Below are positions 22,601 through 43,493 of a stretch of DNA of 64,000 nucleotides, one piece after another (within the stretch, counting starts at the first letter, position 1; each line of letters opens with the position of its first letter). Below the pieces are notes generated by a model, which was given only the letters and a program-made list of their open reading frames with translations, made no database searches and was not told the origin of the DNA. This DNA comes from Escherichia coli. Lineage in GTDB: Bacteria; Pseudomonadota; Gammaproteobacteria; Enterobacterales; Enterobacteriaceae. The stretch lies in NCBI RefSeq assembly GCF_044324875.1, contig NZ_CP172185.1; one strand, written 5' to 3'. A program made the position numbers and the translations under genes.

Positions 22601-23175
22601 TGACCGAGTGGATCACGGCTGTCCTCCAGGCACCTCTCAATGAAACGGGTGTTAGCCTGAGTCAGCTTTCCGACCGCGATAAACAGGTGGAGATGGAGTT
22701 TTACCTGCCGATTAGTGAACCGCTCATCGCCAGCCAGCTTGATGCACTAATTCGCCAGTTTGATCCGCTATCCGCTGGCTGCCCGCCGCTGGAGTTCATG
22801 CAGGTACGCGGCATGTTAAAAGGCTTTATCGACCTGGTATTCCGCCACGAAGGGCGTTATTACCTGCTCGACTATAAATCCAACTGGCTGGGTGAAGACA
22901 GTTCGGCTTACACCCAACAGGCTATGGCAGCGGCGATGCAGGCACACCGCTATGATCTGCAATATCAGCTTTATACCCTGGCGCTGCACCGTTATCTGCG
23001 CCATCGCATTGCTGATTACGACTATGATCGTCACTTTGGCGGCGTTATCTATCTGTTCCTGCGTGGCGTTGATAAAGAACATCCGCAACAAGGGATTTAC
23101 ACAACCCGACCCAACGCCGGGTTGATTGACCTGATGGATGAGATGTTTGCCGGTATGACCCTGGAGGAGGCGTAA
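19633..23175 (+). CDS. recB: exodeoxyribonuclease V beta subunit (helicase-nuclease)
   Basis: ORF 19624..23175; likely start at ATG 19633 ([10 protein letters not shown]..) overlapping ptrA end; Walker A GTGKT. Confidence 0.93.
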
Positions 23176-25001
23176 TGAAATTGCAAAAGCAATTACTGGA
23201 AGCTGTGGAGCACAAACAGCTACGCCCGCTGGATGTGCAATTTGCCCTGACCGTGGCGGGAGATGAACATCCTGCCGTCACCCTCGCGGCAGCCCTGTTA
23301 AGCCACGACGCCGGGGAAGGGCATGTCTGTTTACCGCTCTCACGACTGGAAAATAACGAGGAGTCACATCCGCTGTTAGCAACCTGTGTCAGTGAAATCG
23401 GTGAGTTACAAAATTGGGAAGAATGCTTGCTGGCTTCACAAGCGGTCAGCCGGGGAGATGAACCAACGCCGATGATCCTCTGTGGTGATCGTCTTTATTT
23501 GAATCGCATGTGGTGTAACGAGCGCACAGTGGCACGCTTTTTCAACGAAGTGAATCATGCCATTGAGGTTGATGAAGCTCTACTGGCGCAAACCCTGGAC
23601 AAACTTTTTCCAGTAAGCGATGAAATTAACTGGCAAAAAGTTGCGGCGGCAGTGGCGCTGACGCGGCGGATCTCGGTGATTTCCGGCGGCCCTGGCACCG
23701 GTAAAACGACCACCGTAGCGAAGTTGCTGGCAGCGTTAATTCAAATGGCCGACGGCGAACGCTGCCGTATCCGTTTGGCTGCACCAACGGGTAAAGCTGC
23801 CGCGCGCTTAACCGAATCTCTCGGCAAGGCTTTGCGACAGTTACCGCTGACCGATGAACAAAAGGAACGCATTCCGGAAGATGCCAGTACTTTGCATCGA
23901 TTGCTGGGTGCACAGCCGGGTAGCCAGCGTTTACGTCATCATGCCGGTAACCCGCTGCATCTTGATGTGCTGGTGGTAGATGAAGCGTCAATGATCGATC
24001 TGCCTATGATGTCGAGACTGATCGACGCCTTGCCCGATCATGCGCGAGTGATCTTTCTCGGCGATCGTGATCAACTGGCCTCGGTTGAGGCTGGGGCTGT
24101 GCTGGGCGATATTTGTGCTTATGTCAATGCCGGCTTTACCGCCGAGCGTGCCGGGCAGCTAAGCCGCCTGACGGGAACTCACGTTCCGGCAGGAACTGGC
24201 ACAGAAGCGGCATCTTTGCGCGACAGTCTCTGCCTGCTGCAAAAAAGCTATCGTTTCGGCAGCGATTCTGGCATTGGTCAGTTAGCTGCGGCGATCAACC
24301 GTGGTGATAAAACGGCAGTGAAAACCGTTTTTCAGCAGGATTTTTCTGATATCGAAAAACGGCTTTTACAGAGCGGCGAAGATTATATTGCGATGCTTGA
24401 GGAAGCTCTTGCGGGTTATGGACGTTATCTGGATCTGCTGCAAGCGCGTGCCGAGCCGGATTTAATCATTCAGGCGTTCAATGAGTACCAACTTTTGTGC
24501 GCCCTGCGGGAAGGGCCGTTTGGCGTGGCTGGACTGAATGAGCGAATTGAGCAGTTTATGCAACAGAAGCGCAAAATTCATCGTAATCCGCACTCTCGTT
24601 GGTACGAAGGCCGACCGGTGATGATTGCCCGTAATGACAGCGCGCTTGGGTTGTTTAATGGCGATATCGGTATCGCTCTGGATCGTGGGCAGGGGACGCG
24701 CGTCTGGTTTGCGATGCCGGACGGCAATATTAAGTCTGTGCAACCGAGTCGCTTGCCAGAGCACGAAACTACGTGGGCGATGACGGTACATAAATCGCAG
24801 GGATCGGAGTTCGACCATGCGGCGTTGATTTTACCGAGCCAACGCACGCCGGTAGTAACACGAGAGCTGGTTTACACTGCGGTAACCCGCGCGCGTCGAC
24901 GTTTGTCGCTGTATGCCGATGAGCGTATTTTGAGTGCGGCAATCGCCACGCGCACTGAGCGGCGCAGTGGTCTGGCGGCATTGTTTAGTTCGCGGGAATA
25001 A
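23175..25001 (+). CDS. recD: exodeoxyribonuclease V alpha subunit
   Basis: 608-aa ORF; start overlaps recB stop (TAATG); Walker [10 protein letters not shown]. Confidence 0.95.
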
Positions 25002-25009
25002 ACGTAATT

Positions 25010-25050
25010 GCCGGATGCGACGCACGGGTGTTACGCATGTCGCATCCGGC
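25010..25050. repeat. REP-like palindrome between convergent recD and argA
   Basis: gccggatgcgacgc ... gtcgcatccggc inverted repeat read directly. Confidence 0.45.
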
Positions 25051-25062
25051 GATTTTCATCGC

Positions 25063-26394
25063 TTACCCCAAATCCGCCATCAACACTTTGGATTTACGCT
25101 GGTAGTTGTACAACTGCTTTTTGCTCTCGGGCAGTAAATCAATATCCACTGGGGTAAATCCACGTTCCTGGAACCAGTGAATACTGCGCGTGGTCAGCAC
25201 AAATAATTTGCTTAAGCCGCTCTGCTTCGCCTGAGCGGCAATGCGTTCCAGCAGAACCTCGCCCCGTGATGAACTGCGGTAATCCGGGTGAACTGCCACA
25301 CAGGCCATTTCCCCAATCTTCTCTTCCGGGAACGGATAGAGCGCGGCGCAGGCAATAGTCGTGTTATCGCGCTGAATAATGGTGAATTTGTCGATTTCCA
25401 TCTCCAGCTGCTCGCGAGAACGGCGCACCAGAATACCTTGCTGCTCCAGCGGGCGAATCAACTCCAGAATACCGCCAATATCGTTGATTGTTGCGCGACG
25501 AATCTGCTCGGCGCTTTCCATCACAATCTGCGTACCGATACCGTCGCGTGAGAACAACTCTTGCAACAGCGCGCCATCTTCCTGATAACTGATTAAATGA
25601 CAGCGACGCACGCCGCTGCGGCAGGCTTTCACTGCGCCACGCAAAAAGCGCACCGTACCGGAGTTGTAATCGCCTTTCTCTTCCTGGGCTTCTACCCGTG
25701 CTTGCGCTTCGTTAGGGAAAAGTTCGGAGACAATATCACCGTCGTCATTAGTGACGCCCTGGGAAGAGCAAAAACCAATCATCTTTTCAGCTTTCAGTTT
25801 GATGGCCAGTTGAGTGGCAATCTCTTCCGAGGTCAGATTAAAGCTCTCGCCAGTGACTGAAACAGCGACCGGCCCCATTAGCACTATTGCACCGCTGTCC
25901 AGTTGACGATGGATCGCGTCTTCATCAATCCGCCGGATACGCCCGCTATGGCAGTAATCCACGCCGTCATCGACGCCCAGCGGCTGGGCAATAATAAAAT
26001 TGCCACTGACGACGTTGATATGCGCGCCCTGCAGCGGCGTGTTATTGAGACTCATCGACAGGCGAGCAGTAATATCCAGTTGCAATGTTCCCGCAGCCTG
26101 CTTCACCAGTTCCAGTGTTTTGGCGTCGGTCACACGTATATTCTTGTGATACAGCGGTTCGTGGTGATGCGCGGCCAGATTTGCGTCGATCTGCGGACGT
26201 GCGCCATAGACCACCACCAGACGGATGCCGAGGCTGTGCAGCAACCCGATATCATTAACGATACTGGAGAAATTCTCATGCTCAATGGCTTCACCGCCGA
26301 GCATGATGACAAACGTTTTTCCCCGGTGGGTATTGATATAGGGAACCGAATGGCGGAATCCCTCGACCAGCTCGGTTTTACGTTCCTTTACCAC
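25063..26394 (-). CDS. argA: amino-acid N-acetyltransferase (N-acetylglutamate synthase)
   Basis: ORF track 25063..26460; start placed at GTG 26394 ([13 protein letters not shown]..) giving 443 aa; AAK + GNAT domain order. Confidence 0.92.
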
Positions 26395-27953: not shown

Positions 27954-28030
<77 letters not shown>

Positions 28031-29411: not shown

Positions 29412-30218
29412 ATGTCTGTGGTAATTAGTGATGCATGGCGTCAGCGTTTTGGTGGCACAGCGCGTCTGTATGGTGAAAAAGCGTTGCAACTGTTTGCTGA
29501 CGCGCATATTTGTGTGGTCGGTATTGGCGGTGTCGGTTCCTGGGCGGCGGAAGCGCTGGCGCGCACAGGGATTGGCGCAATCACGCTTATCGATATGGAT
29601 GATGTGTGCGTCACCAATACCAATCGGCAAATTCATGCCCTGCGCGATAACGTTGGGCTGGCAAAAGCGGAAGTTATGGCGGAGCGTATTCGCCAGATTA
29701 ACCCGGAGTGCCGTGTAACGGTGGTGGATGATTTCGTGACGCCGGATAACGTAGCGCAGTATATGAGCGTGGGTTATTCGTACGTGATTGATGCCATTGA
29801 TAGTGTACGGCCCAAAGCGGCGCTGATTGCTTATTGTCGGCGCAATAAAATCCCACTGGTCACAACCGGTGGCGCGGGTGGGCAGATTGACCCGACGCAG
29901 ATTCAGGTTACCGATCTGGCGAAAACGATTCAGGACCCGCTGGCGGCGAAGTTGCGTGAGCGCCTGAAAAGCGATTTTGGCATAGTGAAAAACAGTAAAG
30001 GTAAGCTCGGCGTGGATTGCGTGTTCTCTACCGAAGCATTGGTGTACCCGCAGTCAGACGGTACGGTGTGTGCTATGAAAGCCACGGCGGAAGGGCCGAA
30101 GCGGATGGATTGTGCATCTGGATTTGGCGCGGCGACGATGGTGACCGCCACCTTTGGTTTTGTTGCGGTTTCTCATGCGCTGAAGAAGATGATGGCGAAA
30201 GCGGCCCGTCAGGGGTAA
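29412..30218 (+). CDS. tcdA: tRNA threonylcarbamoyladenosine dehydratase (ThiF/MoeB-like E1 fold)
   Basis: 268-aa ORF with nucleotide-binding motif VVGIGGVGSWAAEALARTG. Confidence 0.9.
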   Translation: MSVVISDAWRQRFGGTARLYGEKALQLFADAHICVVGIGGVGSWAAEALARTGIGAITLIDMDDVCVTNTNRQIHALRDNVGLAKAEVMAERIRQINPECRVTVVDDFVTPDNVAQYMSVGYSYVIDAIDSVRPKAALIAYCRRNKIPLVTTGGAGGQIDPTQIQVTDLAKTIQDPLAAKLRERLKSDFGIVKNSKGKLGVDCVFSTEALVYPQSDGTVCAMKATAEGPKRMDCASGFGAATMVTATFGFVAVSHALKKMMAKAARQG

Positions 30219-30225
30219 ACAATCA

Positions 30226-30257
30226 GGTCGGATGCGACGCGAACGTCTTATCCGACC
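30226..30257. repeat. REP-like palindrome between convergent tcdA and csdE
   Basis: ggtcggatgcgacgc gaacg tcttatccgacc. Confidence 0.45.
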
Positions 30258-30268
30258 TGGTTCTGTGC

Positions 30269-30712
30269 TTAAACCTGCTTCGCCACAGCGATAATCGCCT
30301 CGCTTAACGCATTCAACCCTTGGCTGCGTGAGGCGCTAAGCTGCGCACGCAATCCCAGCTCATCAAACAATGCCAGCGGCGACTGTGCCTGCAATTCGGC
30401 GGCGGTTTTCCCCTCAACGGCAGTCAACAACACCGCCAGCAGGCCGCGCACAATGCGCCCTTCGCTGTCGCCAAAGAAGTGCATTTTACCGTTTTCAGCC
30501 ACGGTATATCCCAGCCAGACGCGGTTTTCGCATCCGGCAATCTCTTTAGCCTGCGCTTTTAACTCGTCTGGCAAAGCCGGAAGCTGTTTCCCCAGCATGA
30601 TCAACTGGCGATATTTATCTTCCCATTGCGACAACGGTGCGAAGGTATTGCGTAACGTTTCTGCGGTTACGGTTGTGCCGAACGGATGTCCGGCGAATTG
30701 CGGGTTTGTCAT
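30269..30712 (-). CDS. csdE: cysteine desulfurase sulfur-acceptor protein (SufE-like)
   Basis: 147-aa ORF immediately downstream of csdA on the minus strand. Confidence 0.9.
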
Positions 30713-37786: not shown

Positions 37787-37894
37787 AATCGCTCCTGCAA
37801 TATAGCCGGATAACATTGCTTATCCGGCTAACCACTCTTGCTTGTTCAGGCCCGGTAGCCGGAGCGACCGGGCATCACATCAGGGAGTAATGTA

Positions 37895-43389: not shown

Positions 43390-43407
43390 ATGCGCTGATG
43401 TGATAAT

Positions 43408-43440
43408 GCCGGATGCGACGCTAGCTGCGTCTTATCCGGC
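43408..43440. repeat. REP element between convergent fucO and xni
   Basis: gccggatgcgacgc tagct gcgtcttatccggc, followed by a partial second copy (ttgcatccggcacgcc). Confidence 0.5.
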
Positions 43441-43493
43441 GTATAAGTTCATTAAATTCAATGTGTTGATAATCGTTTGCATCCGGCACGCCG

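Follow-up and report, generated by a model that had tools for sequence, protein, structure and literature searches.

The convergent recD and argA genes of Escherichia coli are separated by a short gap with a GC-rich palindrome, which raises the question of what this palindrome is, how it came about and what it does for the two transcripts that run towards it. A sequence-only reading of the region had called it REP-like and had proposed that it acts as a bidirectional terminator or mRNA stabiliser. We analyzed it within the window (the whole stretch of 64,000 nucleotides from contig NZ_CP172185.1), together with its counterparts in other genomes. The observations as a whole are best explained, with a probability of about 0.8, by a copy of the REP207 locus in which a two-REP unit (BIME) has decayed and now acts at the RNA level.

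Position and Folding of the Palindrome

recD, the last gene of ptrA-recB-recD, occupies positions 23175–25001 on the plus strand and ends with the stop codon TAA at 24999–25001, and argA runs against it on the minus strand from 25063 to 26394, with its stop codon at 25063–25065 (open reading frame list and annotation; the gene names come from the annotation of an E. coli strain identical to the window over 24700–25400). The gap between the two convergent stop codons is confirmed to be 61 bp (25002–25062) and, as delimited by the sequence and the open reading frames, it contains the entire element. From the stop of recD to that of argA the sequence reads GAA TAA acgtaatt GCCGGATGCGAC gcacgggtgttacgcat GTCGCATCCGGC gattttcatcgc TTA ccc. 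The end of recD consists of two in-frame stops one codon apart (TAA ACG TAA, 24999–25007), with the second TAA at 25005–25007, directly before the hairpin.

The palindrome at 25010–25050 was recovered by the repeat finder and reads aattGCCGGATGCGACgcacgggtgttacgcatGTCGCATCCGGCgatt on the plus strand. Its left arm GCCGGATGCGAC (25010–25021) and right arm GTCGCATCCGGC (25039–25050) are 12 bp long, complementary at 12 of 12 positions, and separated by a spacer, or loop, of 17 nt (25022–25038). The arm quoted in the sequence-only reading was correct in its 12-bp core, and the additional 'gc' (25022–25023) falls outside the perfect stem. Both arms can be extended to 16 nt (25006–25021 and 25039–25054), still 17 nt apart, at 94% complementarity with one mismatch (AATT...GATT), giving an extended hairpin of 25006–25054. 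In the 64 kb the palindrome is the sole perfect inverted repeat of at least 12 bp with a spacer of 3–30 nt, and the mean expected by chance is 0.135 such repeats per window (200 dinucleotide shuffles).

A GC-rich hairpin can be folded in the RNA of both strands. The predicted folding energy is -31.2 kcal/mol for the recD-sense (plus) RNA (z = -4.1) and -34.7 kcal/mol for the argA-sense (minus) RNA (z = -4.7), and for neither strand was any of 200 shuffles as good. In the minus-strand RNA, four inner pairs are added by the spacer. The helix predicted for the argA-sense RNA is longer than the palindrome, because GGGUAAGCG, a segment containing the argA stop, base-pairs with CGUUUAUUC, which is complementary to the recD stop; this extra helix (24996–25004 with 25060–25068) consists mostly of G-U pairs and is absent on the other strand.

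The sequences that follow the stem differ between the strands. On the plus strand it is followed by GATTTT (25051–25056), a short U-tract of 4 U 3' of the hairpin in recD-sense RNA, which was flagged as a terminator-like site by the scan. On the minus strand the stem is followed by AATTACGTTTATT, which was not flagged, the terminator-like site of the scan lying on the plus strand only. The argA-sense RNA has AAUUA (25005–25009) 3' of the hairpin and no real U-tract.

REP Features of the Element

The E. coli REP family has the consensus GCCGGATGCGGCG...CGCCTTATCCGGCCTAC, with Y and Z forms (PMC12306157, PMC2817692); the consensus is quoted as GCCGGATGCGGCGTGAACGCCTTATCCGGCCTACGA in PMC12306157, and the Y and Z forms are given in PMC2817692. 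A REP is described as a palindrome of 20–50 nt preceded by GTAG, and all of the E. coli types Y, Z1 and Z2 carry an AA/GC bulge (PMC8266576). For the activity of E. coli TnpA-REP the GTAG is essential and the bulge is required, and activity is abolished when a regular stem is restored (PMC8266576).

Comparison of the palindrome with these patterns revealed the head half of a REP on both strands. The 13-nt head pattern GCCKGATGCGRCG matches without mismatch at 25010 on the plus strand and with one mismatch at 25050 on the minus strand. Together with positions 25009 and 25022–25023, the left arm forms TGCCGGATGCGACGC, a Z-type REP head on the plus strand, which shares 14 of its 15 positions with the Z consensus given in PMC2817692, the variable K position being the sole exception. 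The right arm is an inverted REP head, found by head match and by alignment, and its homologue in a 95-bp form of the gap is the head of a Y-type inverted REP. The remaining REP parts were not detected: no match to the tail pattern CTTATCMGGCCTAC was found at the palindrome within two mismatches, the GTAG/CTAC tag is absent from the ends of the element, where the flanks are AATT and GATT, and the AA/GC bulge is absent from the stem, both arms reading GC where REPs set AA against GC. A check against the REP consensus, as proposed earlier, thus holds for the head half (0 and 1 mismatches) and fails for the 3' tail half, the tag and the bulge.

When the whole element was aligned semi-globally, it scored 7–8 against the general consensus, a value equalled by 2.6% to 5% of random 55-mers of the window, and 13 against the Z form; the two canonical REPs of the same window score 12–23 in the same alignment. 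Rfam returned only a sub-threshold match, to naRNA4 (REP325-derived RNA), with 13.4 bits against a gathering score of 59.5 and E = 9. The head-head form is single-copy, occurring at one place per genome, and the canonical REPs in the window lie at 30227–30262 and 43408–43441. Judged by its sequence, the element is a REP remnant made of two facing heads and no other REP part, and not a complete REP.

With canonical REPs and BIMEs (Y, Z1, Z2) the element shares its extragenic location in the 3' UTR between convergent genes, a GC-rich palindrome and the 15-nt Z head, but it lacks the GTAG/CTAC tag, the AA/GC bulge and the CTTATC tail half, and is single-copy as such. It also resembles a REPIN (a REP doublet forming one long hairpin), in that two inverted REP-derived arms pair and the longer alleles are doublet-like. 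However, both of its REPs are truncated, and there is no intact REP and no sign of mobility or of multiple copies.

Allele Series at the Junction and Probable Origin

To place the element among E. coli strains, the 701-nt stretch round the junction was compared with 5426 complete E. coli genomes, of which 5425 gave a match in which the junction lies between annotated recD and argA genes. The stretch is found unchanged (100% identity) in several strains, and its identity with K-12 is about 98.5%. The 61-bp form of the gap is found at a query coverage of at least 80% in 4637 of the 5426 genomes (106-nt query), and an 81-bp form at the same coverage in 731 (~13%), including strains 536, MS6198, PM06121 and an ST-131 strain. 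Taken together, these two alleles preserve the outer arms in >98% of the complete E. coli genomes.

The 81-bp form has the outer arms and flanks of the 61-bp form plus a clean block of 20 nt, CATAGGCATGATAAGACCCA, which completes a Z-type REP with bulge (xTAGGCATGATAAGAC...GTCGCATCAGGCA). This Z REP scores 27 against the Z consensus, higher than all random controls; at the place of the GTAG tag, the 81-bp form has ATAG or CCAG. The 95-bp gap, a two-REP unit, comes from a genome that bears the label E. coli although its DNA identity is only 91%. It opens, in the same register, with an inverted REP of the Y type that is complete and includes CTAC, GTCGGATGCGGCGTGGACGCCTTATCCGACCTAC, followed by a short linker and a degenerate Z REP that ends in the same register; among the 5426 complete E. 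coli genomes it was found in none at a coverage of at least 80%. The description of the palindrome as REP-like thus gains support from the heads on both strands, from the REP207 annotation in K-12 and from the full Z REP in the 81-bp allele.

In a four-way alignment, two nested gaps set the shorter forms apart from the longest one. Compared with the 95-bp allele, a gap of 17 nt (junction at about 25032|25033 in the window) takes away the Y tail and its CTAC, and one of 20 nt (junction at about 25026|25027) removes xTAG and the 5' arm of the Z REP relative to the 81-bp allele, so that both putative deletion junctions lie in the spacer (25022–25038). The linker between the REPs is recognisable across alleles (AATGTCCCGCAG / AATGCCCCCAG), and folding of the 61-bp as well as of the 81-bp allele predicts the head-head helix as the basal stem. 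Tail-to-tail REP pairs also occur at the argA-recD junction in Salmonella arizonae and Pseudocitrobacter faecalis.

The simplest reading of these alignments is that the 61-bp form derives from a two-REP unit that lost two internal segments, where the direction of change is taken from one Escherichia outgroup plus more distant genera. In the ancestor, a tail-to-tail pair would have occupied the argA-recD gap, with an inverted Y REP ending in CTAC followed by a Z REP starting with GTAG. Deletions of about 17 nt and 20 nt would then have removed both tails, and with them the GTAG/CTAC tags and the AA side of the bulge, leaving the outer heads GCCGGATGCGAC / GTCGCATCCGGC to pair as a perfect 12-bp stem. 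Decay by two deletions would account for the perfect stem as well as for the loss of GTAG and bulge. Because it has neither GTAG nor bulge, the element is probably no longer a substrate for a REP transposase, and it is likely to be a fixed, immobile remnant.

An adaptive version of this history might be imagined, in which the BIME was 'domesticated': the two deletions would have removed the halves recognised by the transposase, frozen the element and perfected its stem, after which the 61-bp form rose to ~85% of E. coli genomes as a better two-way terminator/stabiliser than the 81- and 95-bp forms. We consider this version improbable.

Two rare, longer alleles of the gap were also observed, of 143 bp in PapRG-04-4 (L084 444–586) and of 234 bp in ecoli019 (L087 70–303). 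Each of them contains a complete Y-type REP with CTAC at its end. Immediately behind this REP comes a diverged duplicate of the terminal ~36 nt of argA with its stop codon, after which the usual gap element appears for a second time; the arrangement resembles an old duplication, or a joint formed by recombination at the REP.

Conservation Across Enterobacteriaceae

The convergence of argA and recD is kept across 80 Enterobacteriaceae loci (region downstream of argA, L005–L083). The gap nearly always holds a GC-rich hairpin or REP, of a type that differs per genus; the hairpin is GCCCTCACC...GGTGAGGGC in Enterobacter, GCCCCCGC...GCGGGGGC in Kosakonia and TTGCCGGATGCGGTATAAATGCCTTATCCGGCAA in Citrobacter. 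A few genera have an argA-recD gap of 0–15 bp, and a few carry insertions of several hundred bp. This pattern fits conservation of a hairpin rather than of a sequence, and a generic need for a 3'-end hairpin at the junction.

Within the 61-bp allele, the stem is perfect in the window and in ETEC1701. It is changed to GTCGG in K-12, O157 and two further strains, and to CAGGC in O111 and another two. A search for covariation in about ten alleles revealed only single uncompensated changes in the stem, each weakening one pair. The stem changes being uncompensated, covariation provides no evidence, either way, for selection on pairing.

The K-12 Counterpart and Its Transcript Ends

In K-12 MG1655 the argA-recD gap (NC_000913.3 2950574–2950634) is also 61 bp long, and 3 of the 61 bases differ from the window, of which two lie in the spacer and one in the arm next to argA. 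The arm base changes GCCGG of the window to GTCGG in K-12, which turns one pair into a G-U wobble (argA-sense RNA) or a C-A mismatch (recD-sense RNA); in a direct comparison, the recD-sense fold was -27.0 kcal/mol for K-12 and -33.2 kcal/mol for the window.

According to Table 16 of a recent preprint (bioRxiv 10.64898/2026.03.23.713779), the K-12 counterpart is row 233 of the bidirectional terminators. This row gives the interval 2950580–2950631 (52 nt), a hairpin of -27.5 kcal/mol, the class 'gene_convergent_transcription' with argA:recB:recD, detection in log and stationary phase, and overlap with REP207. The overlap between REP207 and the 52-nt terminator interval is listed as 13 nt only, so the annotated REP207 may cover just part of the hairpin. 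The RefSeq record of MG1655 holds no repeat features over 49 kb by which REP207 could be placed. An independent source, Table 2 of PMC10100675, also ties REP207 to argA. In the same preprint, REPs are reported in ~30% of E. coli convergent gaps, and 78 REPs in mapped bidirectional terminators, which makes the element a typical case. The Term-seq supplement of PMC7815308 contains no argA or recD rows.

When row 233 was mapped on the K-12 sequence, recBD transcripts were found to end at the last U of ...CCGACGAUUUU and argA transcripts at ...CCGGCAAUUA, both 5–6 nt past the 12-bp stem. Transferred by alignment, these positions predict the 3' end of the recBD mRNA of the window at 25056 (K-12 position 2950580) and that of the argA mRNA at 25005 (K-12 position 2950631). 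The allele of the window would thus have 3' ends like those of K-12, with a slightly more stable stem. In locus, flanking genes, gap length (61 bp) and hairpin architecture, the element corresponds to REP207 of K-12 as its ortholog, but the stem of the window is perfect (12/12), whereas that of K-12 has one weakened pair.

The list of 306 bidirectional terminator sites reportedly originates from a SEnd-seq study. As the list is presented in the preprint (bioRxiv 10.64898/2026.03.23.713779), the element shares with these bidirectional intrinsic terminators a single hairpin serving both strands, an A-run on one side that is the U-run for the other strand, and overlapping 3' ends that span the hairpin. 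It differs from them in its weak flanking tracts (4 A / 3 U in the published K-12 row) and in a hairpin that is derived from REPs and not from a dedicated terminator.

Proposed Function and Alternative Explanations

We propose that recBD and argA mRNAs are both transcribed into the gap, as in the K-12 counterpart, and that a GC-rich hairpin, at about -31 to -35 kcal/mol, forms in the RNA of either strand. As in K-12, each mRNA would end 5–6 nt beyond the stem, and because of these ends the two transcripts would overlap across the hairpin alone, with no antisense run into the neighbouring gene. Most likely, the RNA hairpin terminates and/or protects both mRNAs, and there is good reason to describe the element as a 'two-way 3'-end-defining hairpin'. 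The earlier proposal of a 'bidirectional terminator or mRNA stabiliser' is supported in this respect through the K-12 counterpart (row 233, log and stationary phase).

The share of termination and protection may differ between the two sides. Steady-state 3' ends, on which the terminator list is based, cannot separate termination from trimming, and work on Rho-dependent transcripts has shown that exonucleases can produce such ends by trimming the RNA back to a stem-loop that protects it (PMC6061677). For the argA-sense RNA, which is without a U-tract, hairpin-assisted termination and 3'-exonuclease trimming to the hairpin are both possible, singly or together. A hairpin that only stabilises, with the polymerase reading through and stopping diffusely downstream (e.g., by Rho or by collision of convergent polymerases) and PNPase or RNase II trimming back to the stem, would suit this side, and REP325, which is both a partial terminator and a stabiliser, provides a precedent for protection. 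However, on the recD-sense side the K-12 end lies exactly at the end of GAUUUU, the classic geometry of an intrinsic terminator, and among the supplement rows listed REP207 appears once, as an entry of the terminator table rather than of the Rho-binding table. On that side termination is the more likely process, as stem, GAUUUU and an end at the last U fit intrinsic termination, and we regard stabilisation alone as a doubtful account of the junction as a whole. An effect on translation is compatible with the other readings. The hairpin starts 8 nt past the recD stop and 12 nt past the argA stop, so near that a terminating ribosome must melt its base, and REPs less than 16 nt from a stop codon are reported to stall ribosomes and thereby to reduce translation (PMC12306157, after its reference 17). 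The hairpin might by analogy act as a brake that stalls the terminating ribosome and leaves less RecD and ArgA, though we think this unlikely; the second in-frame stop after recD (25005–25007) argues neither way.

An active element at the DNA level, i.e., a substrate of TnpA-REP/RAYT or a site for gyrase, IHF or Pol I, is far less credible than a two-way hairpin in RNA. Such a role would agree with the REP head sequence and with the high allelic turnover at the locus, including duplications beside the REP, but the palindrome lacks the GTAG and the bulge that TnpA-REP needs (PMC8266576), and it occurs at one place per genome. The specific candidate of an active transposase substrate was rejected, as GTAG and bulge are both absent. 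The absence of compensatory changes is the only point in favour of a chance palindrome with no function, an explanation that was rejected on the shuffle expectation (~0.135 per 64 kb). It is also hard to square with outer arms that over 98% of the complete genomes of E. coli retain, with a GC-rich hairpin in the same gap in almost every Enterobacteriaceae genus and with the transcript ends that row 233 places at the K-12 hairpin, so that its probability is close to nil.

The two-way hairpin preferred here is already catalogued and profiled in E. coli (REP207, bidirectional terminator 233), and what is added is limited to the allele frequencies and to the description of the element as a pair of REPs that are both truncated. 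As a catalogued repeat at a listed bidirectional terminator, the element matters little on its own. The argA-recD junction offers an allelic series, from the 61-bp remnant through the 81-bp form with an intact Z REP and the 95-bp two-REP unit to the duplication forms, which could be used to weigh GTAG and bulge against a bare hairpin for termination, mRNA stability and mobility.

Other REPs and Features in the Window

Other REP sequences were also observed elsewhere in the window. The convergent gap between fucO and xni (43390–43493) is 104 bp long in the window and contains a complete REP GCCGGATGCGACGCTAGCTGCGTCTTATCCGGCGTAT (43408–43441), a linker and a lone inverted head GCATCCGGCA. In K-12 and CFSAN061763 the same gap is 54 bp (L003 5812–5865; L096 43609–43662), and the heads form a short palindrome, GCCGGATRCGACGTTTGCGSCGTATCCGGC. 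This is the long-versus-collapsed pattern seen at argA-recD with the strains swapped, and the collapse of REP pairs into head-head hairpins may thus be a recurrent route of REP decay. The canonical REP GTCGGATGCGACGCGAACGTCTTATCCGACCTGG at 30227–30262 fills the 50-bp convergent gap between tcdA (29412–30218, plus strand) and csdE (30269–30712, minus strand). Between fucI and fucK, a 'tail-tail' palindrome AGCCGGATAACATTGCTTATCCGGCT at 37806–37831 consists of two REP tail halves without heads and is the mirror image of the head-head element at recD/argA.

Besides these repeats, a difference in tRNA copy number was detected. The window carries a single initiator-type tRNA-Met (CAT) gene after amiC (27954–28030), and there are three tandem initiator-type tRNA-Met copies in K-12 (metZ, metW, metV) and in CFSAN061763. 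The difference between one and three copies accounts for the 219-bp offset between the window and CFSAN061763.
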